Assembly: GCA_035221665.1 (NCBI GenBank) | Contig: CM069142.1 | Coordinates: 34,596,001-34,660,000 of the forward strand | Length of the DNA stretch: 64,000 bases | DNA from: Okamejei kenojei | Lineage: Eukaryota | Direction: 5' to 3' | Shown: one piece after another, positions 5,946 to 64,000 of the stretch | Position numbering within the stretch: the stretch's first letter is position 1 | Layout: each line of letters starts with the position of its first letter | Position numbers and translations under genes: made by a program | The notes under the pieces: model-generated | The model's database searches: none | Seen by the model: the letters and a program-made list of their open reading frames with translations, nothing else | Told to the model about the DNA's origin: nothing

Positions 5946-7780
5946 TTCAGAATAAGTTCCATGCAGAGTATAGTTTTGCAGGTTGGAAGATTTGCAGAAC
6001 AACTCATCTGCCCCTCGCCTCATCATCCACCCCCCCCCCCCCCCCCCCCCCCCCCACCATTTAGTACGAACATGGCTAATCGAATTGCAACCTCATTTCC
6101 ACATTCCCATCTACCCTTGTAACCTCACTTTATCTCAAATCTATCACTGCCAAAGACACTGAGGTAGAACGGTGTGGATGGGAAAGGGTTGCAGGGATAC
6201 GTTTAGTTTTGTTTATTGTCACATGAGGAATATGGACTAAGTGCATCATGCTCGGCCAGTTCAATTGTAATCGTGTATTGTCTTTCCACTGACTGGTTTG
6301 CACGCAAGAAAAGCTTTTCACTGTACCTTGGTACACGTAACAATAAACTAAACTAAACGTTGTGGCTGAAGGGAAACTTTAAAGGGATATGGGTTGAATG
6401 TGGGCAAATGGGATTCGCTAAGATGGGGCATCCTGGTCAGCGAGGGCGAGTTGGACCAAAGGGCCTGTTTCTGTGCTGTATCTGCAAACAAAGCTAAGCT
6501 AAAATAATAGAAATAAGGAACTAGAGCGCTAGAGCAACTCTGTGAGTCAGGCAGCATCCCTGGAGAAAATGAGGGGTGACGTTTCTTCTTCAGACTACTT
6601 TTGTGCTCAGAAAATCTTTGGTCTCGCCAGTGTTCGATATAACTGAAGCATTGCCTTCATACTTTTGTATTCACCTCCTCAAGCCATAAACATAACATGT
6701 TAAAGAAGGAACTGCAGATGCTGGAGAATCGAGGGTACACAAAAGGCTGGAGAAACTCAGCGGGTGCAGCAGCATCTAAGGAGCGAAGGAGATAGGTGAC
6801 ATTTCGGGTCGAGACCCTTCTTCAGACTGGTCAGGGATCGGGGAAACGAGAGATATAGACGGTGATGTGGAGAGATAAAGAACAATGAATGAAAGATATG
6901 CAAAAAAGTATCGATGATAAAGGGAACAGGCCATTGTAAGTGTGAAAATGAGAAGCTAGTGCAACTTGGGTGGGGGAGAGAGAGAGAGGGAATGCCAGGG
7001 GCTCGAGGGCTGAGGGAGAGGTGGGAAGGGGAGGAGACAGCAGGGGTTAACAGAATTGAGAAAATTCAATGTTCAAGCCCAGAGGATGCAGACTCCCCAA
7101 GCGGAATATGAGGTGCTGTTCCTCCAACTTGCGGTGTTGCTCACTCTGGCCGTGGAGGAGGCCCAGGACCGAGAGGTCGGATACGGAATGGGAGGGGGAG
7201 TTGAAGTGCTGAGCCACCAGGAGGTCGGGTTGGTTATTGCGGACCGAGCGGAGGTGTTCGGCGAAACGATCGCCAAGCCTCTGCTTGGTCTCATCGATAT
7301 AGATCAGCTGGCATCTGGAGCAGCGGATGCAGTAGATGAGGTTGGAGGAGGTGCAGGTGAACCTCTGTCGGATCTGGAAGGACTGCTTGGGTCCCTGAAA
7401 GGAGTGGAGGGGGGAGGTGAAGGGACAAGTGTAGCATCTCTTGCGGTTACAAGGGAAGGGGTGGAGCGGGAGGGAGGGGAAGAATTGACAAGGGAGATGC
7501 GGAGGGAGCGGTCTTTGCGGAATAGGGGATGGAGTCCTTACAGGAAGCAGGTTTGGAGGAAGAGTAGTCCAGGTAGCTGTGGGAGTCAGTTGGTTTGTAG
7601 TGGATGTCAGTCAGGAGTGTATCACCTGCAATAGAGATGGTGAGGTCAAGGAATGGTAGGGAAATGTCGGAAATGGTCCAAGTGTCTTTGAGTGCCGGAT
7701 GGAAGTTGGTGGTGAAATGGCTGAAGTCAGTCAGTTGTGTGTGGGTGCAGGAGGTGACACCAAAGCAGTCGTCGATGTAA

Positions 7781-43266: not shown

Positions 43267-45699
43267 GTAAACATAGTAGTACTCTGTGAACGCAAGCAAC
43301 AAAAAAGAGGTTCAGTATATAAAAAAACAAGCAATAATAGTGCAAAGCCAAAAACAATACTCCCAAGTTTATATAGTTCTGAGCCTATTTGGAGATTGTA
43401 GTGTTTAATAGCCTGATTGTAGAAAAGAAGCTGTTCTTGAAGATAGACACAAAATACTGGAGTAACGCAGTGGGTCAGGCAGCATCTTTGGAGAAAACGG
43501 ATAGGATAACTATTCTTTCAAAGGGCCCCAGCCTATCCACATTCTCCAGCGATGCTGCCTGACCCACTGAGTTACTCCAGTACTTTGTATCTATCTTTGG
43601 TATAATCCAACATCTGCAGTTCCTTTTTATTACAAGCTGTCCCTGAATCTGGACGTTTCAGTTTTCAGGCTCCTCTACCTGCTTCCCGATGGCAGGGGTG
43701 AAATGAGAGTGTGGCCCCTGCAACCCTCTTGTTGAGGCAGCACCTCCTGTAGATCTCCTCGATTGTGATTTCTGGTCTCCTTTATATGAACAATATTGAC
43801 AGTGTGGGGATCAAATAGTCAAGCTGCTGCTCTTGCTCAGAGCACTGGATGATCTACACTTTCTCACGATCGGGTTAGGAATGATAAATAACACACATGG
43901 CTTTTGCCGTGGTAATCGGAATTAGTCAAATGCTGGTTGCATGAAATCCAGTCAGCTGGTTGCTATGGTGAGCAACAACTGGCAGCAGCTGGGAAGATGG
44001 GTCAAGAGAGCTTATCGTTGTCATATATACACCAGCCGGATATGAAGCAGAGCACTGACATCCTTACTTGCTGCAGCTTCACAAGCACATTACATGTAAC
44101 AACAGCAACGATAAATGTGTTTTAAATGATCAGTTTTTCAAAGTAAACTAGATCATGAAAGTGCAAAGATCAAAGTACATAGAGTAACCATTGTAGTGCA
44201 AAGTTATTTGTGTTTGGTGTTGAGTTTGGATTGTGTAGGGTGGTTCAAGGACCTATGGTTGATGCTGTTCTTGAACCTGATGGTCATGGTTCTCGGGCTC
44301 CTGTACCACCTTCCTGATGGTAGCAGCGAGCAGAGAGGCTGGCCATGGTGGAGTGAATCCTTGCTATCAGCTGCAATCTTGAGGCAGCATTTGCTGCAGA
44401 TCCCGTCATAAGTTCATAAGTTATAGTAGCTGAATTAGGCCATTCGGCCCATCCAGTCTACAACCCAAGGTAGGAAGGGTAAATTTCCCTTGCAATCACG
44501 GTTGATCTATCATTTCCTCTCAACCCCATTATCCTGCCTTTTCCTCATAACTCCCACATTCTAGTCCTTGACAAAAATTGCTAGCATTGCATTTGCCTTC
44601 CTTACTACCGATTCGACTTGCAAATTAACTTATTGGGAGTCCTGCACCTGCATTTCCAAGTCCCTTTGCACCTCCGATTTCTGAATTCTCTCCCCATTTG
44701 GAAAATAGTATTTGATGGTACCCGTGGTGGACTGGGCAATGGTAGGCACTTTCTGCAACCTCCTTTGTTGCTGAACTTGGTGATGCAACCAGTCAGTATG
44801 CTCCCTGCCGTACCCTTTCAGAAGTTTGAAAGACATGCCAAATCTCCTCAAAGCTCTGAGGAAGTAGAGGCATTGGTGAGCTTTCCTCATGGTCGCATCA
44901 GTGTGCTTGGCCCAGGACAGATCATTGTAGATGCGTCTCTATCAGATCTCTATAGGATCACTCCTCAGCCTCCTGCGCCCTAAGGAATCAAGTCCTAGCC
45001 TGCTCAACCTCTCCCTCTAGCTTTGACCTTCAGGTCCTGGAAACATCCTGGTAAAATCTTCTCTGCACCCATTCCACCTATAACATGGTGACCAAAACTG
45101 AACACAATACTAAATATACAATTGTACAACTGTAACATGACTTTCCAACTTCAATACTTGAGTCCTGACAACACCCTCGTAAACTAGTGATTCATGATTC
45201 CATAACTCTTGCTGCAGTGTGGTGTACTAACCCTCTCTTTTTCGGTGAGAATATTGAGCGTGCAGTGTGAAATTTACCCTTCCAACCTTGGGTTGTCGCC
45301 TTGTTGATTGTGCCAGTAATTCCTGACTTACTGTGACCTTTTCCCTCTTGGCACTTAGACATCGACTGCAAAAGAACAGGACCTAGTGGCAGCTAAAGGT
45401 TAATGTAATATTAAAGCTGTCATTTTGCAGGTTTAATAAAAGTCCACCACTTGTGCAGAAATAACTCATCCCCAAATTGAAATTTTGCAATCAAAAATAC
45501 ACCTGCCAACTCCCCAGCCACTTGGTTCGTGTAGGAAATATTGTGGCAATAAGCAGATAATGAAGATCCATTGGACAACACTTCTTCAGAAGCATTTGTT
45601 TCCCCTCTGCAATGCAATGACTCTTCTCTCTTAGTTGGTGGCAACAGAAATAGCTTCACTGTTCACTCATTCTGTTGAAGGTGGGTGTATTTCGAAGCG

Positions 45700-46130
45700 T
45701 GCAGTTAAGCTGGAAAGGGCGCAGAGAAGATTTACAATGATGTTGCCAGGACTTGAGGGCCTGAGCTACAAAGAAAGTTTGGGCAGGCAAGGACTCTATT
45801 CCTTGGAGAGCAAGAGGCTGAGCAGTGAACTTTAGTGGTGTACAAAATCACGAGGGGAATCGATAGGGTGAATGCACAATCTTTTCCCCAGGGTAGAGGA
45901 ATCAAGAACCAGAGGACATAGGTTTAAGGTGAGCGGGGAAAGATTTAAAAGGACGCTGAGGGTGAATCTTTCCACCCAGAGAGTGATGGATATATGGAAC
46001 GAGATGCCAGAGGAGGTAGTTGAGGCAGGTACTATAACAATATTTAAAAGATACTTGGATAGGAACATGGATAGAACAGGTTTAGAGGGATTTGGGCCAA
46101 ATGCCAGCAAATGAGACGTGCTTAGATGCT
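45700..46130 (+). mobile_element. CR1 LINE 3' fragment
   Basis: KLERAQRRFTMMLPGLEGLSYKE..SRTRGHRFKV peptides. Confidence 0.85.
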
Positions 46131-47636
46131 CTATTAATGGGATTCTAAAGCTTATCATCAATAATGATCAATGCTTTTCACTAACCTTTATCAACAAAAA
46201 TAATAACTCAATTCCTAGAAAAAGAAACTTACATCATGGATTAAGATCATTAAAATCATACATCATATAAAATCCGAATTGATTCATTAAAAATCTAAGA
46301 TTTCAAGTTCAATGTGATTTATTTTAATTGCAATCACTAAAATCATCTGTATTTTTTGTCGTTTCTGCACTTTTTTTTGCACTGTTTTCTAAGGAACATT
46401 TTACCAGATGGTGCACATGAATATTAGTGAGCATTTGTTTAGCTACACTGTTGGTACAGTAAGTATTATCTAACTTTAGGTCCTTGCCTGAAGAAATGTT
46501 TTGCCTAAAGAAAATTTGAAATCAAAGGTGGTTACAGTTCGAATTGTGGTCCTGGTGTTCAAAGCATTTATTCAGAGGTCAAATCACAAAGTGTTGGAGG
46601 AACGAAGTGGGTCAGGCAGCATCTGTGGAGGCAATGGACCGGTGACGTTACGGGTCAGGACCATTCTGAATCCTGATTAGCAACGTTGCCTGTTCATTCC
46701 CTCCACAGTTCAGAAATCATAGGAGCAGAATTAGGCCATTTGGCCCATCGCGTCTGCGCCATTCAATCACGGCTGATCCATCTTTCCCTCTCAACCCCAT
46801 TCCCTCTAACCTTTGCCGCCCTTTACTAATCAAGAACCAGTCAATCTCTGCTTTAAAAATACCCAATGACTTGGCCCCCATGGCCGTCTGTGGCAAAGAT
46901 TTCCACAGATTCACACACTCTGGCGAAAGAAATTCCTCCTCATCTCCTTTCTAAAACTTCCTCCAGCACTTTGAGTTTTGCTCAAGATTTCTAGCATCTG
47001 CAGTCCTTCGTATCTCCATTTATTTTGCAGAAATGCCTTCTTGAAAACACGACACATTGAACTGCAAAATCCATTCGCAAGCGGTGTTAATACTGTGAAG
47101 GTATCATAGCAACATCTCATCTCAAAAGTGTGGTGGCCAATTTTACCACCGCTCTGTGCATTCACTGCATAATTGTGCGGAGCCAAAGCACAATTTATTC
47201 AGAGTGCCTGGCCGCTTCATTGCAGTTTATAAATACCAATAAAAGTTGGCAAAGTTTCCAACAATTTCTACTTTTATTTCTGAGTTCCAGCAACTTCAAT
47301 TTGTTCGAGAAACAAGGAACTGCAGATGGTGGATTACAAAAAAATACCCACAAAGTGCTGGAAGAACATTACAGGTTAGGCAGCATCTCTGGAGAACATG
47401 GCGAGGTGACGGTTTGGGTCAGGGACCTTCTTCAGACTGAAGGAGAAAGGGTCTGAAGCCGGACCCAAAACATTGACTATCTGTATTCTCCAGAGATGTT
47501 GCCTGTCCTATTGAGTTACTCCCCAACTTGGTGTCTTTAACTTCAGTTTGTCAGTTTGCTTAACAGAGAACAGCACAGCACAGAAACTGGCCCTACGGCC
47601 TACTATGTTTGTGCCAAGAACATGATGCCAAGACTA

Positions 47637-47970
47637 AAGGGGCTGTCCCACTGCGGCAATGTAATCTGTGAGTTTAGATGAGTTTGTCCTCGACCCAAAC
47701 TCGCAGCATGGTCGGCACGAGCCCTAGGAGGTCCTATGTGGTCACTGGATCTCTCCTTCATGCTCGAGGGAAGTTCCCGAATACTCGTGGCCTCAGCTAG
47801 GTCGCGGAAAATTTTTCAGTTCAATTTGTTCGGCATGCTTCTTTTTGATGCGTAGTGCAGTGGAGTGGGGTCGCTATTTAGTTACAGGCAGTCGAGGGCA
47901 GCCGTAGGCAATCTCCTTCGCTGACCGGTAGGTAAAATGCCCGTTAAACTTTATTATAATTTCTTAAAAG
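47637..47970. mobile_element. PIF/Harbinger-like MITE fragment leading into the CT-rich tract
   Basis: taaa-ggggctgtcccactg terminus. Opposite TIR not seen. Confidence 0.4.
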
Positions 47971-47971
47971 T

Positions 47972-49850
47972 GTCTCCACTCCTTCCCCCCCCCCTTCTCT
48001 CCCCCCTTCTCTCCCCCCCTTCTCTCCCCCCCTTCTCTCCCCCCCTTCTCTCCCCCCCTTCTCTCCCCCCCTTCTCTCCCCCCTTCTCTCCCCCTCTCTC
48101 CCCCCCCTCTCCCCCCCCTCCCCCCTTCTCTCCCCCCTTCTCTCCCCCCCTCCCCCCCTTCTCTCCCCCCCTTCTTCTTCTCCCCCCCTTCTCTCCCCCC
48201 CTTCTCTCCCCCCCTCTCTCTCTCTCCCCCCCTTCTCTCCCCCCCTTCTCTTCTCCCCCCCCTTCCCTCCCCCCCTTCTCCCCCCCTTCTCTCCCCCCCT
48301 TCTCTCCCCCCCTTCTCTCCCCCCCTTCCTCCCCCCCTTCTCTCCCCCTCTCTCTCTCCCCCCCCTTCTCTCCCCCCCTTCTCTCCCCCTCCCCTCTCCC
48401 CCCCTTCTCCCCCCCTTCTCTCCCCCCCTTCTCTCCCCTCCCTTCTCCCCCCCCCTCCTCCCCCCCCTTCTCTCCCCCCCCCTTCTCTCCCCCTCCCTTC
48501 TCCCCCCCTTCTTCCTCCCTTCTCTCCCCCCCCTTCTCTCCCCCCTCCTTCTCTCCCCCCCTTCTCTCCCCCCCTTCTCTCCCCCCCTCTCCCCCCCCTT
48601 CCCCCCCCCCCCTTCTCCCCCCCCTTCTCCCCCCCCCTTCTCTCCCTCCCCTTCTCCCCCCCCTTCTCCCCCCCCTTCTCTCCCCCCCTTCTCCCCCCCC
48701 CTTCTCTCCCCCCCCCTTCTCTCCCCCCCCCTTCTCCCCCCCCCTTCTCCCCCCCCCTTCTCCCCCTCCTTCTCCCCCCCCCTCTCTTCTCCCCCCCCCT
48801 TCTTCCCTCTCCCCCTTCTCCCTCCCCCCCTTCTCTCCCCCCCTCTCATCCCCCCCTTCACTCCCCCCCTCACCCCCCCCTTCTCCTCCCCCCCCCCTTC
48901 TCCCCCCCCTTCTCCCCCCCCTTCTCTCCCTCCCCCTTCCTCCCCTCTCCCCCCTTTCTCTCACCCCCCTTCTCTCCCCCCCTTCTCTCCCCCCCCCTTC
49001 TCCTCTCCCCCCCCCTTCTCTCCCCCCCTTCTCTAATCTTCCCCCCCCTTCTCTCCCCCCCTTCTCTCCACCCCCCCATCTCTTCCCCCCTTCTCACGCC
49101 CCCCCTCGCTCCCCCCCTGTCTCTCCCCCCCTTCTTCTTCCCTCTCATCCCCTTCTCCCCCCCCCCTTCTCCGCCCCCCCCTCATCCCCCCCCTCTCTCC
49201 CCCCCTCTCTCCTCCCCCCCCCTCTGGCCCCCCCCTTCTCCCCCCCCTTCCTCTCCCACCCTTCCTCTCTCCCCCCCCCATTCTCCCCCCCTTCTCTCCC
49301 CCCCCTTCTCTCCCCCCCCTTCTCTCCCCCCGTCTCCCTCCCCCCTTCTCCCCCCCTTCTCTCCCCCCCCCTTATCTCTCCCCTCCCTTCCTCCCCCCCC
49401 TTCTCTCCCCCCCCTTCTCCTCCCCCCCTACTCTCCCCCCCCCTTCTCCCCCCCCCTTCTCCCCCCGCTTTCTCTCCCACCCCCCTTCCTCCTCCCCCGC
49501 TCCACCCCCCTTTCTCGTCCCCCCTTCTCTCCCCCCCTTCCTCTCCCCCCTTCTCTCCCCCCCCTCCTCCCCCCCCTTCTCTCCCCCCCCCTTCCTCTCC
49601 CCCCCCCCCTTCTCCTCTCTCCCCCCTTCTCCCCCCCCCCTTCTGCCCCCCCCCCCTTCTCCCCCCCCCTTCTCCCCCTCCCCTTCTCCCCCCCCCTTTC
49701 TCCCCCCCCTTCTCATTCTCCCTCTCCCCCCCTTCTTCTCCCGCCCCTGCTCTCCCCCCCCTTCTCTCGCCCCCCCTTCTCTCCCCCCCCCTTCTCTCCC
49801 TCCCCCTTTCTCTAACCCCCTTCTAACATTCCCCCCCTTCTACCCCATCT
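47972..49850 (+). repeat. ~1.9-kb polypyrimidine low-complexity tandem repeat (C5-7TTCTCT-like units)
   Basis: Almost exclusively C/T on + and G/A on -. Confidence 0.97.
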
Positions 49851-49859
49851 AAACTTTGC

Positions 49860-50160
49860 ATCGCTTATTTCCTTCTAGTCTTTGACATTTCCACCATGGG
49901 GCCCGATGGATCTGACTGTCTACCGTATCTATTCCACTCATCATATTCTATCAGGTCTCCTCTCAGCCTTTGAAACTCAGGAGAAAACAATCCAAGTTTG
50001 TTCATCCTCTCCCTGTAGGTGATACCCTCTAATCCAGGCAGCATTCTGGTAAATCTCTTCTGCACCCTCTCCAAAGCCTGTACATCCTTCCACTAATCGG
50101 GTGACCAGAACTGCACGCAATACTCCAAATCCAGCCTAACCCAAAGTCCAATAAAGCTGC
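49860..50160 (-). mobile_element. CR1 LINE fragment
   Basis: ERVQKRFTRMLPGLEGITYRERMNKLGLFS..RLRGDLIE. Confidence 0.85.
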
Positions 50161-50542
50161 AAGTTTAGAAAGGTCTAAAAAGGTTTGGGTTTTGTTAATT
50201 ATTGTCTCTCCCTCCGACGCTCCGGAGAAAACAATCTAACTTTGTCTGAAGAAGGGTCTCGATCCAAAACAACACCCATTCCTTCTCTCCAGAGCTGCTG
50301 TCCCGCTGAGTTAAGACCCTGTATTTGAATTGGTTTAAAGGAGTAGTTTTTGATGTGCAGTTGCAGGTGAAAGTCAAGGATATGAATCACTGTTCCATAA
50401 TCTAACTAGTGGAGTACAGGCAACTGCACTGAACTAATTGCAATTGCCTATGAAATTGGACTATGAAAGTCCTTTTCTTTGGACTCTCTGTTGCACAGTT
50501 GAACTTTCCGAAAAGTAATGGGAATATCGTGGCGGAGTGATC

Positions 50543-50836
50543 GGGGTGGCGGACTGGTAGAGTTGCTGCCTTGCAAAGCCAGAGACTCAAGTTCGATTCT
50601 GACTACGAGTGCTGTCTGAACAGAGTTTGTACATTCTCCCTGTGACCGAGTGGGTTTTCTCCTGGTGCCCCGGTTTCCTCCCACATCCCAAAGACATGCA
50701 GGTTAATTGGCTTCTGTAAATCGTGTATTGTCCCTACTGTGTAGGATAGTGCTGGTATAAGGGATGATCTCTGGTCAGAGCAGAGAAGATGGACCGAAAG
50801 GCCTGTTTCCAAGCTGTGTCTCTAAACTAAACTAAA
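50543..50836 (+). mobile_element. HE1-like V-SINE
   Basis: Head, V-domain and ctaaactaaactaaa tail. Confidence 0.8.
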
Positions 50837-51564
50837 AATTATGGTGATAGCACAAAATACTGGAATAACTCAGTGGGTCAAGGTCTCTGGAGAAAAGGAA
50901 TTGGTGACGTTTTGGGGAGAGACCTTTCTTCAGACTGAGTCAGGGGAGAGGGAAACTAGAGGTGTGAATAGACAGAACAAACAACCATAAAAATGGTGGT
51001 GGGCAGAATGTGTGGGACTTGTATGTTTCACTTCCACTTCATCTCCGAATGTTTCTGTCTCTGAAGCTCCAGTCACGTCCTCCAGTGTTGACCTTGAGAT
51101 GATCGGCATGAAGGACGTGGGTGTGTGATGTGGGTTGAATTACACATTGTTTGTCAGCTCTCTCCTTTGCAATGGGGCCTTATCTCAACCAGTGACAAAG
51201 GTCTGAAGTCACATCTGTGCATGATGCACCTCCAGTAAATGATTTAGACTTTTAGATTTGAGAGATTAGGAAAGTGGACATTTGGCCCACTGAATCCACG
51301 CCGACCAACGATCCCCATACCCGAGCACCGTCATATACACTGGAGACAATTTACAATTTAACCGAAACCAATTAACCCTCAAACCTGCACGCATTTGAAA
51401 TGAGAGAGGAAACCAGTGCACGCAAAGAAAACCCACACCTGTCACACGGAGAACGTACAATCTCCGTACAGACAGCACGGATAATCACGATCGAACATGG
51501 GTTCCTGACGATGAGAGGCAGCAACTCTACTGCTGTGCCTGTGTGCTGTGCTATCTGTGTTAGC

Positions 51565-52450
51565 TTTAAGCTTATTATTGCCATGTGTACCGAGGTGCAG
51601 TGAAAAGCTTTGTTTTGCATGCTATCCAATCTAATCAGATACACAGGTCCACCACCGATTTTCCGGCAACTTGGGATCCGGCAACGCCTTTAATCCGGAC
51701 AAAATTGTTGGAGAGCACTTGAAATTCTCCCCAGAAGTCCCCTCGAAGATGTGGCACATTGGCCAGGTGAGGCGGTCGACCTCATCAGGACATCCGTGTC
51801 CGATCGGCTGGTTGAGTTTGCCTCCTGCGGTCGGGGTTCTGGAACTCCAGCCCGGCTGGAGCCTGCAGATCCAGCCCCATTGCTGATTTCCGCGGTCAAC
51901 TGAGGCAGACCATTCCCGTACCGTTAGACTCCTCTCGGTGGCTGTGATCTCTGTTGGTGCGGAAAAATTGATAATCCGGCAAGGCTAGGAACCAAGGGTG
52001 CCATAAAATGAATCCAAACTCAAGTACAATAGGTAGAGCAGAGGGGAAGATAGAGTGCAGAATATAGTTCTCAGCATTGAAGCGCATCAGTTCCAAAGAC
52101 AAAATCCAATGTTCGCGATATGGTAGAGGTGAACCGGATAGTACCCTAGCTTATGGAAGGACTGTTCAGATGCCTGATAACAGAAGGGCAGCAGCTGTTC
52201 CTGAGTCTGGTGGTGCGCGCTTTCAAGCTCGATGGGAGCGGGGAGAAGAAGATATGACCAGTGTGGGTCAAGTCTTGGATTCTGTTGGCTGCTTTTCTGA
52301 GGGAATGTGAAATGTAGATGGACTCAGTGGTGGGGAGCCTGGTCTGTATGATGGACTGGACTAAAATCTCTGCAATTTCTTGCAGTCTTGGACAGTACTG
52401 TTCCCAAACCAAGCCGACATACGATCCGACTAAATGCTTTCTACAGTGCA
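51565..52450 (-). mobile_element. Rex1/Babar LINE 3' end interrupted by a pogo-like MITE remnant (~51644-52003)
   Basis: C-terminal peptide QTRLPTTESIY..KAANRIQDLTHTGH..RTTRLRNS..IRHLN; tail aagcttttcactgcacctcggtacacatggcaataa. Confidence 0.75.
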
Positions 52451-54982
52451 TCACTGCTCCAAAGACAAATTTCACTCCAGGCACTATTAAGTTGTTCTAA
52501 TTTGTTGTGGTCCAATGCATTGAATTGAGATCTACATCATGTATATTATGCAGAGCTTGGACAGGTTTACAGCACTTTGATCTGCAGTGGCACTTCCAAC
52601 AGCTCCTTGTTTTCTTTATTGTTTCTACTTATGTTTGCCTCAGCAACCAGAAGATTATTGGTTTACAGCCCAATCTTTAAATCAATTCTCAGTAAGTGTT
52701 GCATTATTAGAGATGCAGAACTCCCTTTATCTAATCCATGGGATAACATAGAACCACTGTGAACAGGCTATCGATGGTCAGCATGGACTCGATGGGCTGA
52801 AGGGTCTGTTTCTTTGCTGTATTTTATGATCAATCACTCAGTCATCTGGGACGAGCACTTAACAGGAACAAGCCGGCTATTTTACACCATTACACTCTGG
52901 ACAAGGATAGCCGACACTAATGTTTAAAACGAAAGACACAAAGTGCTGGAGTAACTCAGCGGGTCAAGGAGCATCTCTGGAGAACATGGATAGGTGACGT
53001 TTCGGGTCGGGATCCGTCCTCAGACTCTTTAAAAGGTTTGAGTGAGGGAGTGTTTAAATGGCAGCTGATTGCTGGCAAGATGTGTGAGAGTGAGTGTGTG
53101 TGGGAGAGTGTGTGTGAGAGAGAGCGCATGCGGTTCCCGATCCAAAACGTCACCTAGCTAGAGGAAGGAATGAGGGGAGGGGAGAAATAGGTGCGAGTCT
53201 AGGTGGGGCCCAAGGGAGGTGGGGGATGTTGTGAAGAAAGGGTGGGGAATGAATATCAATTAACGTTATTTATCTCATTTACTTGTGACACCTTATTCTG
53301 AGCAAGTTGTCACATTAATATGTGGTCTGAACTTCAGGTTAAGAGAACATCAGAATAAAATGATTAGAGTCATGGACGTGTACCATGTCCATGGTTGACA
53401 TACTGGGCTGTTCCCATTTGCCTGCATTTGGTCCATAGCCCTCTAAACCCTTCCTATCTCTATATCATTCCAAATGTCTTTTAAACGTAATTGTATCTGC
53501 TTATCATAAGAGCAGAATTGGACCATTCGAGCCATCAGGTCTGTTCCACCATTAGATCGTGGCAGATCTATCTTTACCTCACAACCCCATTCTCCTGCTT
53601 TCTCCCTGTAACCTTACTAAACAAGAAATCAATCTCTGCTTTAAAAACATCCAATGAATTGGCCTCTACTGTCATCTGTGTCAATGAATTCCACAATTTC
53701 ACAATCCTTTAACTAGAGAAATTCCTCCTACTCTCCATTCTAAAGATATGTCCTTTTATTCTGAGGCTATGCCCTCTAGTCCTAGACTCTTCCATTACTG
53801 AAAATATTCTTTCCACATCCACTATCAGGGCTCGAAATTAATGGTTGCCCGGGTGCCAATGGCAACCTACAGTCCCGCCGGGCAACCTGAAAGCCATGCC
53901 ATTTTGCCCGGCTTGGCAAGCACCCGGGACACCTATCATTTAATTCTGAGCGGGCCCCCTCTCTATCTCTCTCTCTCTCTGTCACTCTCCGTCTCGGCCC
54001 GCCATTCGTGTCCGGGTCTCGGCTCTCGGCTCTCGGGTCTCGGGTCTCCGCCACATACATGCGCACTGCCACGGCAACCGGTCGGCGTCGGCCACTTTTT
54101 CCCTCCCATTGCAATGTGGGAGATCTGGCCGCCATTGCTGTCCGGTCGCCACCTCACCGCAACAGCTGAAAACCAACGCAGAATTACTCCCTGGAGCTGG
54201 AGTAACTCCCTGGAGTAACTCTTGCTTCTTGGTTTCTTGGTCCTCCAAAAATATTCCAAATGGAATTTAAACTGGTGGACCCACCAACAAACTCCAAACT
54301 CTGAAAAATAACTGCCTAGTGCATTTTATCTGTTTATTTATTGTGTATATATATGGTCTATGATATATAGACACACTGAACTTTTATCTCCCTCTCTGTA
54401 TTATGTTTACATATTCTGTTGTGCTGCAGCAAGCAAGAATTTCATTGTCCTATCTGGGGCACATGACAATAAAACTCTCTTGACTCTTGACTTGGACTTA
54501 AGCAAAAAAGGGCTCTTGGGGAAAAAAGAGCTACCTCAAATTTAGTTGTGTCTGGTTGGGTTACTATGGTAGGGTGAAGACTATTCCATGCTTCAATTGT
54601 GCGAGGGAACTCCATGGAGCAGCCAGCATCTCTGGATAGAAGAAATTGGGTGACGTTTCGGGTAGAGACCCTTCTTTAGATTTCCTCTGGTTTTAGTTTA
54701 ATTTAAAGATACAGCGTAGAAACAGGCCCTTCGGCCCACCGAGTCCACGCCGACCACTGATCACTCGTACACTAGTTCTATCCCACACATCAGCGACGTA
54801 AGTCAAGAGTGTTTTATTCTCTCACGCCCCAGTTAGGACAATGAAATTCTTACTTGCAGCAGCACAACAGAATATGTAAACATAGTACTCTGTAAACAAT
54901 GTTATAAACGAGAAAACAAAACCTCCATATAGACAGTACCCATATTCAGGATCAATTACAGGTCTCTGGCAATCTTAGGCAG

Positions 54983-55208
54983 TGTTGTGAGGTAAATGAA
55001 ACCTTCACTACTTGTAATTTACTTAACTTTATTTAAGCTTTAAGCAACTTATTTCTTTAATACATTACTCAGAAACGTCTGGCAAACATGGCTGATTCCG
55101 CAGGCCTTTCCCGCCCGAAATACTTTGCACATGTGCACACCCTACGCATGTCCTACGCATGCGCACACTCTAGAAGAGCCCCGCACATGCGCACATGCGC
55201 CCACTTCA
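54983..55208 (-). repeat. 3' LTR
   Basis: Direct repeat of 58366-58591 (8 mismatches by eye); PPT at 55209-55220. Confidence 0.95.
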
Positions 55209-55449
55209 TTCTCCCCTCCTATTTATAAGTTGAGACGGTCAGGAGTTGAATTACATCTTGATGACCGAACTGAGCTTCAGGAGGTAATGGCGTTTCAATC
55301 AATAGCGGTAGATATATTGCTTGGTCATCAACTTCACTCATTTTGTTATTTAGATTTACATTTTAGAATTTCTTATAGAAGTTTCCATTAGGGATGCTGG
55401 AAGTGTTGGAGAAGTTCTCGATTAGTGTTATCAAGAAGTGACGGAGCTG

Positions 55450-58323
55450 ATGAGTTGACGGACATGGTTGACAGTTGACTGGCGTCCACTGATACTTGAT
55501 AGTTGCATACGATGGGTTGACATCAGTCAGTTCAACGTCAAACAAAAGGCTCGTTCTTAATGACATAACACGGTCCCAGGCTAATCAACCATGGCAGAGA
55601 AGTACCACAAGAAGAACGCCGTTAAAGAATCATGTGGGAGTAGTATTGGTAGCAGTTGACAGTAGAGATTTGAATGGAGTGTAATGCATCTGGTGAACAC
55701 ATTCCCAATGCTGATTGGTATGTCATTTGAGCCAGCATCAAATGATTCCGTTATACCTCTCAACCTGACCATTTCAATAGGGTGATAGTTTTATTGTTGA
55801 TTCCCCTCTTTGAAAGGTAGTATCTTTAAATCTTTCGACATGAATGAGGTGCGTAACTTGAAATAACAGTTGATCTTAAACATTTGATAACCATAGCAGC
55901 TGAATATTTGGACAAGGAAAAGCAAATTCGTTTCGAGAGGATGGTAAAGGCCCCTTTGAAGTTATAAACGTCCATAGGTTGAGTAGCTTTGATCAATTGA
56001 ACCTTGGTTTTAATTCAGCACAGATTCTACATGACGCACACGTCATCTTCACAGCAGAGAAAGGTAAGTTTTTGGAACGAACATAGTATAACAAATTGAC
56101 TCCCGGATGCCCATTGTAAGATCATTGCAGAAGAATAGAGGCAAATGCTCGGGTTAATGTATCTGGAGCAACATTATCCTCACCAGGGCGGTAAACTCAA
56201 TGAATAACTATATGCAGATAATTCAATCCTCCATGCATGAATTTTACTGTTCTTAATCTTCGTTCGTTTCCGATTATCCAGCAAACATTAAAACTACTGA
56301 ACGCTGATCTGTTATCAAAGTGAAGTGCTGGCGAGCAAGGAAATGAACTCAATTTTCCTAAGGACCTTCCGTAGAGAGTTTAATGTAACTGGAACAGGTA
56401 TCTCTTGGAGTGGACTGGATCAGGCTTGATTATATCATTTCCAAACCAATAACCAAGAATATTAATTGATGACACTGATGTTATTGACTAAGCCTCATTT
56501 AATGTTAGATTTTTAGAATGTACAACATCTAAAAAACCGTTGTACATTTTCATCATGTTCAGCTTGGTCTTTTTCCTGCAATAGTTATATTATCAAGATA
56601 AGGGAAAGTATCTTTAAGGTTTTCCTGTTCAACAAGTTTGTCCATCTCTCTCTGAAAAAACAGCCACGCCATTAGTTACACCAAAAGGAACTCTGCAGTA
56701 GTGATATATTTCCCATTTGCTTCAAACGCAGTGTATTTCTTCTCTGATTCCTTCAAAGGAATTTGGTCGTAAGCACTTTTTAAGTCAAAAGTAGAGAATA
56801 TCTTATACTTAGCTAATGTATTGATAATCTCTTCTATTCGAGGTTGTGGATATGCATCAAGGTCCGTGAACTGGTTTATAGTTTGAGAGTAATCAATGCA
56901 GAGTCTTTTTCTATGTCTCTCCAATGGGTCCTTAACATGACAACTTGTGCCCTCCAAGGGGAAGAGCTGGGTTCTATGATACCTTCTCGTAAAAGATTAG
57001 TTACTTCTGTGTTGATAAAGTTTCCTATCATCTTTGCTAAAGTGTCTTGATTTTGTAGCAATTGGCTGCACTTGGAGGATAAATTAGTGAATAATGAAGG
57101 ACATTCAACAGATGCAGCAGAAACACCACACAATACTGGTGGCTTTGACAATACAAGGTCAGGCATAGATCCTTCATACATTATTTGAAGTGATCTGTGC
57201 AGTTTCTGGAAATCCTGACCTAGAATTATATCGCTACACAAATTTTTCAAAATACCTAGACATACAGATTTATAGCTAGTTTTGTTCAGAATAAAGTCTA
57301 CAATACAAGATCCTATAATTTGAGTGTTGAGAGTTGTCAGAGCCATCGAGATTTCCTTATTTGAAGGAATTATGGTTAGATTTAGACGAGACACACGTTC
57401 ACTTATAAAACTTTCTGAACTGCCAGAATCAAGTAATACATTAAGTGTATGGCCATTAATGGATACCATTGTAGCTGCATGAGACAAGCTCTGAGGAAAT
57501 GCAGCTGTAATTGTACATAAAGAAGGCGTATACATGGCAGCAGTCACACTTTTAGTAGTTGCTTTGGACTTGCATAATAATGTCCCTTCTTGCCACAACT
57601 ATTACAAGTTGCCTCTCGAGCAGGGCATATATCTCTCTTATGAATATTACCCCCGCAAACGTAACAGTTCCTTTTTGAATAATTATATGTTGCAGCAAGG
57701 GCACCTTTATCAGTAGAGATTGTTTCGGTTTTCTCCATATTTGTACTTGGGTGAAATTCGCTTGTAGTAGTTGCAGCAGAATACACATTAGATGAGCCAT
57801 AAGCATCTGAATTTTTCTGAGCCAAGTCCAAAGAGTAAGCTTGATTGTAAGCTGACTGTAAATCCAAGGTTTTGTGTTCTAATAGTCTCTCGTATTAAAG
57901 GCGATGCCAAACCATTGATAAAAGAGTCTCGAATAACTTCCTGTCGATATTGATCAACCGTAACTGCTTTGAAGGCACAGTCTTCACTAAGTCTTTGAAG
58001 TTCTTGTAAAAATTCATCAAGTGACTCACCAGGTTTTTGTTTCCGAGTAGCAAGGAGGTGTCGAGCGAATATCACGTCGGGGTGTCTTAACGAAGAGTCT
58101 GCTTAGTACATCAATAACAGAATCATAAGTTGTACATTCCTCTATGTACTCGTATACATCAGAAGAGACAAAAGCTTATTAATGTCTTAAGCCTGTCTGG
58201 TGCATCGTTGCCACACTCCTCAAAGAAGTTATTTAGTATACGAAGCCAGTGCTTCCAATTCTTTGCAGCAGCAGGTGAGTTGGCATCCAGATCCAAGCGT
58301 TGGGGTTTCAATAGTTTCTCCAT
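55450..58323 (-). pseudogene. Gypsy gag-pol pseudogene
   Basis: ATG at 58323 (MEKLLKPQRLDLD..WKHW); tandem Cys/His knuckles CYVCGGNIHKRDIC and CNSCGKKGH; protease LLDSGS; RT RLCIDYS, FDLKSAY, FPYLDN; integrase remnants. Many frameshifts. Left boundary approximate. Confidence 0.88.
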
Positions 58324-58365
58324 CCCAAGTCGGACTGTTTGACTTGTAAGATAAGTTGCTTAAAT

Positions 58366-58591
58366 TGTTGTGAGGTAAATGAAACTTTCACTACTTGTAA
58401 TTTACTTAACTTTATTTAAGCTTTAAGCAACTTATTTCTTTAATACATTACTCAGAAACGTCTGGCAAACATGGCTGATTCCGCAGGCCTTTCCCGCCCG
58501 AAATACTTTGCACATGCGCACACCCTGGGAATGTCCTACGCATGCGCACACTCTAGAAGAACCTCGCACATGCGCACATGCGCCCAGTTCA
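58366..58591 (-). repeat. 5' LTR
   Basis: tgttgtgagg...cccagttca, adjacent to the gag start side. Confidence 0.95.
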
Positions 58592-58971
58592 GGCAGCAAC
58601 TGCACTGCCAATGTACTGCCCCATAGTCTTGAACTGAATTAAAACATACAGTAGCTGTAAAGGGGGACATAGCATAAAGGGGGACATAGAGATTTAAGAC
58701 TGAAAATGAATAGTTTTATTTTAGTAACCAAATTTATCAATGTATAATTTTTTGTGTGTTGGAAAATAAAATATAGTGGTACTGCTGGTGGACTTCCTGC
58801 CTCACACGCCAGAGAGCTGTGTTCAATCCTGTTTTTGGGCACTTTGGGATGTGGGTTTCCTCCCACATCCCAAAGATGCATTGGCTTTGTAGGTTAACTT
58901 GTCTCTGTAAAATTGCCCCTAATGTGTAGGGAGTGGGTGAGGAAAGTGGAGATAACAGAACTGGTGTGATT

Positions 58972-59420
58972 GGGTAGACAAAAATGCTGGAGAAACTCAG
59001 CAGGTGAGGCAGCATCTATGGAGTGAAGGAAATAGGCGACGTTTCGGGCCGAGAACCTTCTTCAGATGGGAGAGGTGGGGCGGGAAAAATAAAGGAAGAG
59101 GTGGAGACAGTAGGCTGTGGGACTGCTGGGAATGGGAGGGGAAGGAGGGAGAAAGCAAGGACTACCTGAAATTGGAGGTCAATGTTCATACCGCTGGGGT
59201 GTAAACTACCCAAGCAAAATCTGAGGTGCTGCTCCTCTAAATTGCGGTGGGCCTCACTCTGGCCATGGAGGAGGCCCAGGACAGAAAGGCCGGATTCGGA
59301 ATGGGAGGGGGAGTTGAAGTGCTGAGCCACTGGGAGATCAGGTTGCTTATTACAAACTGAGTGGAGGTATTGTGCGAAGCGATCGCCAAGCCTGCGCTTG
59401 GTCGCACCGAGGTTGATCAT
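58972..59420 (-). mobile_element. Penelope-like 3' fragment (GIY-YIG plus pLTR with a hammerhead-like motif at 59038-59065)
   Basis: GATKRRLGDRFAQYLHSVCNKQPDLPVAQHFNSPSHS..EEQHLRFCLGSLHPSGMNID. Confidence 0.85.
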
Positions 59421-61316
59421 ACGCTGAATAATCCAACCAGATTTTGTTTGGAAGTGGAAAGGGATAATAGAAATTGTGTTCATTGCAACGTGTGAAAAAA
59501 GAGATGAGATACTGTATTATAAATTTGCTGCATGTCATTGTGGTATATATCATGTCTTGATTGGTGAATATGTTTAGTTTGCGACTTTATTTGAAGCAGA
59601 AATAATCTGTGAATGCTTCATTGAGCATAATTCCGACTGGTAACTACGCACTTCGTCCGAGCACATTATCGCACGCGTCATGCAAGCCGTCTTAAATGAC
59701 CACTGTCATTTGGCAACCTAAAAAGCTGCCGAAGTTGCCCGGCTGGCAAAAGGGAAAAAAAGTTCCCTGACTATCATTAGTTCCATGCCTTTCATTATTT
59801 GGTAGGTTGTATGCTCTTCTGAAGCTCTGGTAGCTCAATCCAGATACAGAGTTCCCTTTGAATGAAAGAGTTGCTCCTAGAGTTGCCTCTCTTAAAGCTC
59901 TCCCTTTAAGCCTGTGTCCTCCAGTTTTAGAATCCTCCATCCTGGGGAAAAAGACTGTGAGCATCTTCCCTTTAAATAGAGTTATTCAGCACAGAAATAC
60001 AGCCCTTCGGCCCAACTTGTCCATGCCAACCAAAACGCCTCATATTCACTAGTGTCACCTAAGTCCCAGCCTATGCAACCTCTATAACTCAAGGCCGCAA
60101 GCCCAGGTAACATCCAGGTGAATCTTCTCTGTGCCTATTTCAAGATGAGGAAGGAACAGAGAATATGAATACAAGGACACAAAGTGCTGGAGTAACTCAG
60201 CGGGGTCAGGCAGCATCTCGGGGGGACATCTCGAGTCGGAACCCTTCTCCAGACCATCAACAATGATTTGTTCAGAGTGAGAATTTGCTAGCGATAGCTG
60301 AGAAGCTACGTTTTTTCAAACAGAACTGGGATGTAAATGTGAATGTTAACTGTGTTAAGGCAGGAAGCTCGGCAGCTAATTGTTCAGTTGACTGCAGGCT
60401 AAATATTAATTAATGACTGTTTTAGAAGCAATAGGCACAAAATTAGATTTAGAACTGCAGACATTTGATTACATGGTGTACAGAGAATAGGTTGTTCACT
60501 ATTTTGATTAACATATCATCAGAAACCATGTGTTGGATTAGATGGAATAGATGGGTAAAGTGAACTGAAAGTAAACGTGGATTATTTTCCCGCTTGGTAA
60601 AATAAGGACAATTTCAATTATTTTTATTACCCTCCAGGCATGAATGCTTCAGAGATTGCAGATTGATCCATCAATCACATTTCTGCCTGAGTATTGTCAT
60701 GGTGTTTTCTGTGATCAAGTACCTTACCTTAATAGTCACACAGCACAGAAATACAATCCTTCGGCCCAACTTGTCCATGCCATCTACATTAGTGCCATCT
60801 TCCTGCGTTTGGCCATATCCCTTGTTCCTGTCCAAAATGTCTTATACATGCTGTTACTGTATCTGCCTCAGCTACTTCCTCTGGCAGCTCGTTCCATGTT
60901 GCCCTTCAGGTTCATATTAAATCTTTCCCCGATCACCTTAAACCGAATGTCCCCTGGTTCTTGATTCTCCTACTCTGGAAGAAATTCTCAGTATTGGCTG
61001 TGCCGATTAATTTATTCCCTAACCTTTGATTGTTTCTCATTGCTCTTTTTGCACGACCATTGACAATAGGGACATTTCAGATCAGGGCTCTTCTTCAGAC
61101 TGGTTTAATTTTTTTTTAAATTAACTTTTTTTCCTGGTGGCAATTTTATCTTTATTAGTTTATTTAATATTGTAACATTGCATTGCCATAAGAATAAGGA
61201 AACAAAATTAGGAACATTTTTACAAGCTTCGATTCTACAATCAGGAGATTAATAGACACAGCGAACAGAAATTCCACACTCAAAAAATATTCCCATCAAC
61301 ATTTAGCACGTTTAGA

Positions 61317-61640
61317 ATGGCACAGTGACGTAGCTGTTAGAGCTGCTACCTCACAGTACCAAAGACCCGGGTTCGATCCTGGCCTCGGGTGCCTTCTGTG
61401 TGTGGAATTTGCACGTTCTCCCTGTGACCGTGTGGGTTTCCACCAGGTGCTCTGGTTTCCTCCCACATCTCAAAGTCATGTAAGGTTAATTGGCCCTCTG
61501 TAAATTGGCCCTAGTGTGTAGGGAGTGGATGAGAAAGTGGGATAACATAGAACTAGTGTGAATAGGTGATCGATGGTCGACGTTGACTCCGTGGGCTGAA
61601 GGCCCTGTTACCATGCTGTATCTTTCAATCTAATTCAATT
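61317..61640 (+). mobile_element. HE1-like V-SINE (full length)
   Basis: Head, B-box, V-domain and tail. Confidence 0.85.
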
Positions 61641-62424
61641 CAGTTTTGAAAACGATCCTTTGCACCAGTTGCTTATTCTTTGACGGATACAAAGTGCTGG
61701 CGTAATTCAGCGGGTCAGGCAGCATCACTGGAGTACATAGATGGGTGATGTTTCAGGTTACAAGAAGGATCTCGACCTGAAATATCGCCTATCCATGTTC
61801 TCCAGAGACGCTGCCTGATTCACGGAGTACTCCAGCACTTTGTGACCTGGTGTGCAAAGCAGCATCTGCAGTTCTTTGTTTTTATTGCTGATTCTTTGAG
61901 CTTTATTGAACCTAAAAGATTTGAATTGTTAGCTTGGGTCTAATTTGGGTATTATGTGAACAGCTGGAATTAATCCTCTGCTTTCTGTGACACAATGAAC
62001 TGTATCCATTTCCAGCAAAGTTTGATGTCTTGCAATCACATCAGCTTTACAAACTGGGATCCTGTCAACTATCAAACAATTCAACCAGTAAATAAATGTC
62101 TCCCTTGAAGGCTGTGTGTGCGTATTCAATGAGTAGCTATCTGCACTGCACATGCCAGCTAGCCTTGTGTTCCGAGCTAACAACACTGTGCTGGAGTAAC
62201 TCAGCGGATCAGGCAGCATCTCTGGAGACCATGGACAGATGATGATTCAGGTCGGGATCCTTCTTCATGCCAAGCTTGTGTTTTTGTGCTGTCCTTTGGG
62301 GCAGGAGTAAGGGTCAAGAGAAAAGAGTGTGTAATTGTCATATGTACCAACAATGATACCATGACATTTGTACTTGCAGCAGCCTAACAGGCCCGTAAAC
62401 ACATTGCACATAGATAAGTTAGTT

Positions 62425-62730
62425 TGGTTTAGAGATCCAGCAGGGAAACAGGCCCTTCGGCCCATCGAGTCCATGCCGACCATCGATCACCCGTTCACAC
62501 TATTTCTACGTTATTCAGCTTTCTCATCCTCTGCACACTAGGGACAATTTAAAGAGGCCAATTTACTGACAAACCCACACATCTTGGGGATGGGGAGAAA
62601 ACCGGAGTACCTGGAGGAAACCCATGCGGTCTCAGGAAAATGTGCAAACTCCACATAGACAGCACCCAAGGTCAGTATCGAACCTGGGGGGCTGGCACTG
62701 TGAAGCAGCAACTCCACCAGCTGTAACCAT
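62425..62730 (-). mobile_element. HE1-like V-SINE
   Basis: Reverse-complement consensus match. Confidence 0.8.
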
Positions 62731-63175
62731 CGTGTCGCCATATTTTCCCACATTTGGCCCATATCCTTTTAAATCTCTCCTATCCATGAATCTGTTCAGT
62801 GTCTTTTAATTACAGTAGCTGCCTCAACTACCTCCTCCGGCAGCTCGTTCTGTATACCCACCACTCTCTCAGTGGAAACGTTGTCCCTCAGGTTCCTATT
62901 AAATATTTCCCCTCTCCCACCTCTGGTACATGAGCTTTCTTTCCTTTGTGATTCTGAAGAGACTAATTAAAACTTTGCTTTACCAGATTGTTGCTACCAT
63001 TTACTGATACCTTTATCACATTAATGTCACAGGTTTTCCAGAGTTAGCATCTCCAATATAATAACCCATCATCCAAAACATAATTTCTAGTTGCTGAGTT
63101 ATCCAGCAATCTGTGTCCTTTTTTTTGTAAACCAGCATCTATTGTTCCTTGTTTCCACATTTTACTCTCAGTGGG

Positions 63176-63442
63176 AGGCACATGGTTCAGTGGTAGAATC
63201 GCTGCCTCACAGCACCAGACCGGGTTTGTACATCCTCCCTGTGACCGCGTGGGTTTTCTCCGAGTGCTCTGGTCTCTTCCCACATCCCAGAGACGTGCAG
63301 GTTTGTAGATTAATTTGTAGGTTAATTGTCTTCTGTAAATTGTCCCTAGTGTGCAGGATAGAACTAATGTATGGGGTGATCGCTGGTTGGCACAGACTCA
63401 GTGGGCTGAAGGGCCTGTTTCCGCGCTGCATCTCTAAACTAA
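63176..63442 (+). mobile_element. HE1-like V-SINE
   Basis: Head (partly deleted), V-domain, gaagggcctgtttccgcgctg tail. Confidence 0.8.
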
Positions 63443-64000
63443 CAAAAATGAATAAGTGAGGTTTCTTTGCATAACTGGGTCAAAGATGGTCTACGACAAG
63501 CTCAACTTTGACCAGTTGATTTCTTGACACGTGCGAACAATTATGAATTATTCTTCCAGAATATTTCATAAGCCTGTAATAGCAGCAGCGATCTTTGATG
63601 TTCAATCTAATTTGACTATCGGTAGGCAATGAAATAAAGGGTGCAGTTAGATATTTGGACATTCGAGATGAGCTTCAAAGTGCTGGTGTGCATCACCAGA
63701 TGAGAGAGAATGTTAAATGTGGGATGTTGTGACAGGAATCGCTCCGTCTTTGGAGAAATATATCTCCTTTGATCCTTCAATGATACCAAACCTCAACACA
63801 GCACAGTAGGTGATGAATTTTCCCTGAGGCTGACAGCAGAGGTGGTCTGCTGGCTCTGGCTCATGTCCTCTCACTGCCCGGCTCAGTTTATTGGGCAATT
63901 GCCCAGAGTAGGGGATTCGAGAACCAGAGGGCATAGGTTTAAGGTGAGGGAGGGAAGATTTTATAGGTATCTGAGGGGAAGCTTTTTCACACAAAAGGTG

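Follow-up and report, generated by a model that had tools for sequence, protein, structure and literature searches.

The genome of Okamejei kenojei contains a Ty3/gypsy retrotransposon lineage that probably primes reverse transcription with the first 11 to 14 bases of its own RNA and without a tRNA, judging from sequence comparison and analogy with Tf1. At the sequence level, the primer-binding site (PBS) pairs with a segment of the element's own long terminal repeat (LTR), always starting one base past the LTR end; primer and PBS covary across families, and no site for a tRNA end is present. A first-pass annotation had proposed the element as a candidate self-priming retrotransposon, and the covariation, together with the lack of a matching tRNA 3' end among the 12 anticodon types sampled and of a chromodomain, supports that interpretation.

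Structure and state of the window element

The window, the whole stretch of 64,000 nt that was analyzed, carries the element on its reverse strand (Table 1). The element is assigned to Ty3/gypsy by its TG...CA LTRs, target site duplication (TSD), polypurine tract, and PR-RT-RH-IN order, all of which are present. Compared to another genomic copy, it lacks 568 nt in 52 gaps, the largest of 320 nt near 56357, and the window copy is therefore defective. The open frames of another genomic copy encode RT-RH-IN and no chromodomain, and the nearest solved structure to this region is Ty3. The double Cys/His-knuckle gag and the 5-bp TSD (CTGCC on both sides) described in the first-pass annotation are indeed there. 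The element lies inside a high-copy repeat (58596-58680 region and 54950-54982), and contigs pass from its left flank into right-flank-like sequence, which is consistent with a clean insertion.

Elsewhere in the window, positions 47925-49850 hold a C/T-rich low-complexity array of approximately 1.9 kb with a period near 13 nt. Many dispersed short, SINE-like repeats from several families, 60 to 85% identical and in both orientations, occupy 45000-64000.

Table 1 Features of the window element (positions in the window)
Feature	Position	Strand	Remarks
Whole Ty3/gypsy LTR retrotransposon copy	54983..58591	-	3,609 nt, defective
5' LTR, TG...CA	58366..58591	-	226 nt
3' LTR	54983..55208	-	226 nt; differs from the 5' LTR at 8 positions
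TSD copy, upstream, 5 bp, CTGCC	58592..58596	-	
TSD copy, downstream, 5 bp, CTGCC	54978..54982	-	
gag-PR-RT-RH-IN frame remnant	55223..58323	-	Frameshifts, stops, and deletions; without chromodomain
gag double Cys/His knuckle	57570..57666	-	Mag-type spacing; second knuckle damaged in the window copy
RT catalytic motif, YLDN in place of YxDD	56589..56600	-	
Polypurine tract	55209..55220	-	
Predicted self-primer, 11-nt core	58422..58432	-	Predicted first RNA bases, initiator-like start; start inferred
Three extra PBS-pairing bases	58433..58435	-	Variable in sister subfamilies
One-base spacer (A) between LTR end and PBS	58365	-	
PBS core, 11 nt	58354..58364	-	Complementary to 58432-58422
PBS pairing extension, 3 nt	58351..58353	-	
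14-mer copy in 3' LTR	55039..55052	-	
Predicted 6-bp hairpin	58404..58421	-	From the first base past the primer; AATAAA (58416-58411) mostly in the loop

LTR-PBS complementarity in the window and in family copies

On the reverse strand, the 14 nt at 58364-58351 form a perfect reverse complement of 58435-58422, and this pair is the sole perfect inverted repeat of at least 9 nt within 58250-58640. The pairing begins one base (A, 58365) past the terminal CA of the LTR (58366), and no TGG was found at offsets 0 to 5 past the 5' LTR. When LTRs were Markov shuffled, 6 of 100,000 matched the post-LTR sequence over 14 nt and 151 of 100,000 over at least 11 nt. The first-pass annotation was correct on the missing TGG, the perfect 14-nt complementarity, and an AATAAA (58416-58411) downstream of the LTR 14-mer. 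It had also taken the 14-mer as the unit; the pairing is real, but the conserved unit is shorter. In contigs of other organisms, similarity to the window stops directly past 58354 while the LTR arm is identical, and the frequent LTR variants in other organisms' contigs fall at 58433, with none listed within the 11-nt core. From these alignments, the conserved unit is 11 nt (58432-58422/58364-58354), the outer 3 bp varying between subfamilies.

Exact junctions of LTR end and PBS occur 261 times in this genome (2.76 Gb). Within the family, the best 30 genomic copies were sampled, the window among them. The 14-mer is perfect in 24 of these; three carry one change in the LTR arm and three one change in the PBS arm. 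None of the single changes (6 of 30 copies) is compensated, and three further PBS variants from a pattern search have unaltered LTR partners, again without compensation. Covariation is absent within the family, which is too young and uniform, and the uncompensated changes look like decay after insertion, uninformative either way on structure. Older copies vary at the base preceding the 11-mer. A search of the same genome with a distant homologue returned only matches of 51 to 59% identity, apparently from the same family.

Relatives in other animals

RT-RH homologues were detected in 1,351 proteins at an E value of 1e-60 or better. Among the best 120 of these, the named sources include soft coral, sea anemone, mussel, shrimps, a copepod, a nematode, a stingray, and a catshark. 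Full-length homologues mostly measure 1,150 to 1,230 aa. In the 122 proteins examined, the RT motif was found in 112 and reads YxDN in 103 of them, with YxDD in some branches. The gag double Cys/His knuckle is present in 80 of the 122, and many of the others have no gag. In Ty1, the same RT change keeps polymerisation, blocks transposition, and is partially rescued through RNase H changes (PMC2148107). The present lineage would be a natural, transposing YxDN one.

A metagenome scan provided 80 loci, 33 of which have a gag match; 6 of these have less than 150 nt upstream, and 27 were scorable. In each of these, an unbiased scan that ignored LTR ends covered 270 nt that spanned the gag start and the sequence 5' of it. 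A perfect inverted repeat of 11 to 18 nt was found in 24 of the 27 and a 10-nt repeat of the same geometry in 2, which makes L121 the sole scorable locus without an upstream inverted repeat. Control windows inside gag contained no repeat of at least 11 nt at any of the 27 loci (reach, 6 to 10 nt), and 11 Gypsy elements with TGG-type sites from this genome likewise had none (reach, 6 to 9 nt). Four short-upstream loci were compared with their own 3' ends, giving a 12-nt match in L055 and nothing informative in the other three.

Several relatives have 5-bp TSDs and LTR pairs that are 98 to 100% identical, indicating that the lineage transposes carrying this PBS. At a further locus (L105:3286-3468 and 7518-7700), an L050-family LTR pair is oriented in reverse to the matched frame, which suggests nested or adjacent insertions. 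A viral-contig scan gave no match, and an atlas search with gag recovered generic gag clusters only.

Covariation of primer and PBS across families

Covariation was assessed in 20 elements, the window element and 19 of the 27 scorable loci. L121 and the near-duplicates L047, L051, L053, L063, L079, L094, and L119 were left out; L047 and L051 have one mismatch apiece. Pol identity to the window's family is 44 to 72% (16 of the 19 relatives compared).

Across the 20 elements, the 11-nt pairing with a segment of the own LTR, located 21 to 70 nt upstream, comprises 217 Watson-Crick pairs out of 220, one G-U pair, and two mismatches, among 17 distinct 11-mers. The 11-mer reads AGTTGCTTAAA in the window element, AGTCGTTTAAA in L045, AGCTGTTAAAA in L050, AGTCGAATAAA in L067, and TGTTTGTTAAA in L095, and in each case its own complement is present. 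Permuting the primers among elements never attained 217 in 100,000 trials (maximum, 192). Both sides have changed at 7 of the 11 core positions, in elements that are related and hence not independent. Between the near-identical L046 and L079 there are five differences in 280 nt, two of which make up one compensatory pair, with the LTR change found in both LTRs; copying of the primer into the PBS would have this effect. The first-pass annotation had called for a covariation check on family copies. Covariation is evident across families, and within the family no change is compensated.

In 17 of the 20 elements, pairing continues past the 11 nt by 1 to 7 nt (mean, 2.75 nt more), so that primer length is not set by sequence alone. 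The longer pairing could be a trace of slightly upstream starts.

Predicted RNA folding and proposed priming mechanism

RNA folding predicts the LTR/PBS duplex with a probability of 0.79 to 0.98 in 18 of the 20 elements; in L057 and L083, other folds are preferred and the duplex is missing (probability, 0.02 or less). A stem of at least 4 bp starts from base 12 (+12) in 16 of the 20 elements, where about 6 are expected, and the summed +12 stem length is 87 versus a shuffle maximum of 78 (n = 20). Taken alone, the window +12 hairpin has a P value of 0.09. In terms of the three-duplex pretzel, the central duplex and the +12 hairpin are predicted, and the sequence 3' of the PBS has no consistent pairing with the LTR. 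The 11-mer begins with AG(T/C) in 17 of the 20 elements, a start that resembles the TCAKTY initiator described for LTRs (PMC3601003).

In Tf1, the PBS is bound by the first 11 bases, which RNase H separates from base 12 (PMC7175516), the primer is copied into cDNA (PMC11042837), and priming requires a three-duplex structure (PMC10085805). By analogy, we infer the start site, the cut, the extension, and the rewriting of the PBS in the window lineage. Transcription would start at or just before 58432, and the RNA 5' end would fold back onto the PBS. RNase H would then cut past the 11-nt core, next to the hairpin that begins at the following base, and RT would extend the freed 3' end across a very short R-U5 (31 to 80 nt including the primer). 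Plus-strand synthesis would copy the primer and thereby rewrite the PBS, keeping the two sequences matched. Given a core of 11 nt, the start site is predicted at 58432-58435 and not only at 58435, the position named in the first-pass annotation. The mechanism predicts that capped RNA ends map to 58432-58435 and that cleavage falls before 58421.

Alternative explanations

Candidate tRNA primers were sought in an incomplete set of 33 sequences that covers 12 anticodon types and comes from this genome only. Priming by a mature tRNA 3' end was rejected for these 12 types, with a best pairing of 6 of 11. A host tRNA 5' fragment ending near nt 24, from the D-loop of tRNA-Thr(AGT) or similar, might prime instead, in which case the LTR match would be a by-product or have a second role. 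Copia lineages are known to use half-tRNA primers (PMC6317226), and the window 11-mer is identical at 10 of 11 positions to nt 14 to 24 (D-loop) of host tRNA-Thr(AGT) (L138:1501-1574). Only 21 of 5,000 shuffled 11-mers match the tRNA set as well; the L071 11-mer matches this tRNA at 11 of 11 positions, and with G-U permitted, 7 of the 20 PBSs pair with it fully. However, an AGT start and a TAAA end alone give random 11-mers an equal match in 313 of 5,000 cases (6%). Over the 20 PBSs, tRNA-Thr forms 178 Watson-Crick pairs, 22 G-U pairs, and 20 mismatches, in contrast to 217, 1, and 2 for the own LTR, which fits better in 19 elements and equally only in L071. Moreover, since a primer is copied into the PBS, a tRNA primer should draw the PBS toward the tRNA, whereas the PBS tracks the LTR. 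Priming by such a fragment is thus very unlikely. The first-pass annotation had named a matching tRNA as evidence against self-priming; the sampled 3' ends offer none, and the D-loop match touches on that point in part. The likeness to tRNA-Thr may be a coincidence of initiator and poly(A)-like motifs, or it may reflect where the motif came from; that the LTR acquired the motif from a primer that was a tRNA D-loop fragment is improbable. The two bases directly beyond the tRNA-Thr(AGT)-like stretch also agree.

The duplex could alternatively hide the 5' poly(A) signal against premature cleavage while something else primes, much as a hairpin masks the 5' poly(A) signal of HIV-1. This would suit the AATAAA or ATTAAA found within the LTR 11-mer (positions 6 to 11) in 9 of the 20 elements and the A in its last three positions in at least 19. 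Nevertheless, the window AATAAA lies outside the duplex at RNA position 17 to 22, and 8 of the 20 elements have neither hexamer between primer and PBS. Masking also calls for no fixed register beside the LTR end, should be compatible with G-U pairs (1 of 220 seen), and would leave the element without any primer site, so we consider it unlikely. Self-priming might also involve a longer transcript, initiated far upstream in the LTR and given its 3' end by internal cleavage past the paired stretch; this reading varies the preferred one and partly shares its probability. The pairing past the core in 17 elements and the lack of an evident TATA-like box approximately 30 nt upstream of 58432 speak for it; yet the core never drops below 10 to 11 bp, its initiator-like start recurs in 17 elements, and copying of a long primer would have left longer matches in the PBS. 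On balance, a long transcript appears highly improbable, and priming by the first bases of the RNA is the reading retained here.

Phylogenetic placement

Unnamed Gypsy elements of the same genome served as reference rows for the trees. They form three groups: a chromovirus group of SH3_Tf2-1 and chromodomain-bearing elements; DUF7041-bearing elements with a TGG site, which we take to be CsRN1-like; and double-knuckle elements with mostly TGG sites, presumably Mag-like, a label that derives from gag pattern and PBS types. The 56-row tree was a quick version. On RT and on RT-RH-IN, the window lineage is one long branch (100/100) outside all three groups. The chromoviruses are likewise a separate 100/100 branch, and the pol of the window lineage is not nested among them. 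In an unrooted 652-column tree, the lineage and Mag stand opposite the chromovirus and CsRN1-like groups (95/95), at a point where long branches meet. A sister relation of lineage and chromoviruses is not rejected (p-AU of 0.46 on RT and 0.056 on RT-RH-IN), and RT-only trees do not separate the sister hypotheses. Seven Mag-like rows group without the window lineage (100/98), whose pol is not nested in Mag. The constraint uniting the clade with magC gave a p-AU of 0.002, a value that is confounded because the constraint also forces L222 into the group. No chromodomain or SH3_Tf2-1 was found in 21 polyproteins scanned, whereas a chromodomain was found in two of three control pieces from the same genome.

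The first-pass annotation had seen the element as Mag-like rather than chromoviral. This agrees with its gag, with where it stands in the unrooted tree, and with the absence of a chromodomain, but it falls outside the sampled Mag group. Likewise, the proposed separate lineage is borne out as a branch of its own, but not as a separate origin of self-priming, given the p-AU of 0.056 for the chromovirus sister relation.

Cigr-1 of Ciona intestinalis presumably has LTRs of approximately 245 bp, one frame of approximately 1,210 codons, a SURL-like gag, and a separate RT branch. The window lineage may well be the Cigr-1 clade, based on size, LTR length, and gag; MolGy or other named marine clades are possible identities. 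The Cigr-1 clade also occurs in molluscs (PMC6238403). A motif search for the clade name in the searchable supplements of PMC6238403, PMC8556966, and PMC12471100 gave no match. The Saci2/lennie clade was rejected, as the TSD is 5 bp in the window and its relatives versus 4 bp in that clade (PMC12471100).

Implications and comparison with known systems

To our knowledge, self-priming has been shown only for Tf1, and among animal elements it is attributed to sushi chromoviruses. We tentatively suggest, at slightly less than even chance, that the window lineage represents a second, independently evolved Ty3/gypsy self-priming system across cnidarians, molluscs, crustaceans, a nematode, and cartilaginous fishes. 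In that system, 11 bases would combine the roles of transcription initiator, primer, and, in many elements, poly(A) signal; a hairpin would mark the cut, R-U5 would be as short as 31 nt, and the RT would be of the YxDN type. Self-priming is described for Tf1/sushi, Tcn1, and plant TAR Copia elements (PMC6317226) and hinted at for Skipper (PMC5006619). No report of an animal non-chromovirus Gypsy clade with self-priming was found in the open-access literature (subscription journals, Repbase, and GyDB being outside this scope), and a term search of the Troyka paper found no mention of primers.

If the reading is correct, a large animal lineage outside sushi would self-prime, implying repeated invention or an older origin of self-priming than assumed, a question already in print (PMC3601003). 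Such elements would be independent of host tRNA and would offer no site for the 3' tRNA fragments that silence LTR elements. PBS finders keyed to tRNA ends miss or mislabel them.

The closest parallel is with Tf1, Tf2, and Tj1 and the Tf1/sushi group, which share with the lineage the Ty3/gypsy domain order, the lack of a tRNA site, and a PBS complementary to the own LTR with an 11-nt core (PMC7175516, PMC4600332, PMC10085805). Unlike Tf1/sushi, the window lineage has no chromodomain, a double-knuckle gag, a mostly YxDN RT, and a local +12 hairpin rather than a clear three-duplex pretzel. Pol of the chromodomain-bearing elements in the same genome is approximately 30% identical to that of the lineage. 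Their LTRs measure approximately 460 nt versus 150 to 230 nt, and their LTR partner lies approximately 230 nt from the PBS, versus 20 to 70 nt upstream of it in the lineage. As a positive control they worked only in part: among 19 loci with an LTR pair, three showed a perfect LTR-PBS match of 10 nt and the rest 4 to 8 nt. One sushi-like chromodomain family (L173-L192) has LTRs of approximately 460 nt and a non-TGG site in which as many as 10 nt can pair with the mid-LTR; this known self-priming type coexists with the window lineage in one genome.

The Mag lineage (A, B, and C clades; SURL, Jule) has the same double-knuckle spacing, short LTRs, and a compact single frame. The Mag-like elements of this genome, unlike the window lineage, have mostly TGG-type sites and no LTR complement, and their pol identity to it is approximately 28 to 30%. 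On the Mag-like branch, L220:2055-2212 has a post-LTR sequence without TGG and without an LTR complement (5 nt), and it may be decayed or deleted. For the TAR lineage of plant Ty1/copia elements (Houba, Osr-1), self-priming is predicted from LTR-PBS complementarity (PMC6317226). TAR belongs to a different superfamily and a different kingdom than the window lineage, and because this prediction lies outside the chromoviruses, more than one origin of self-priming is already assumed.
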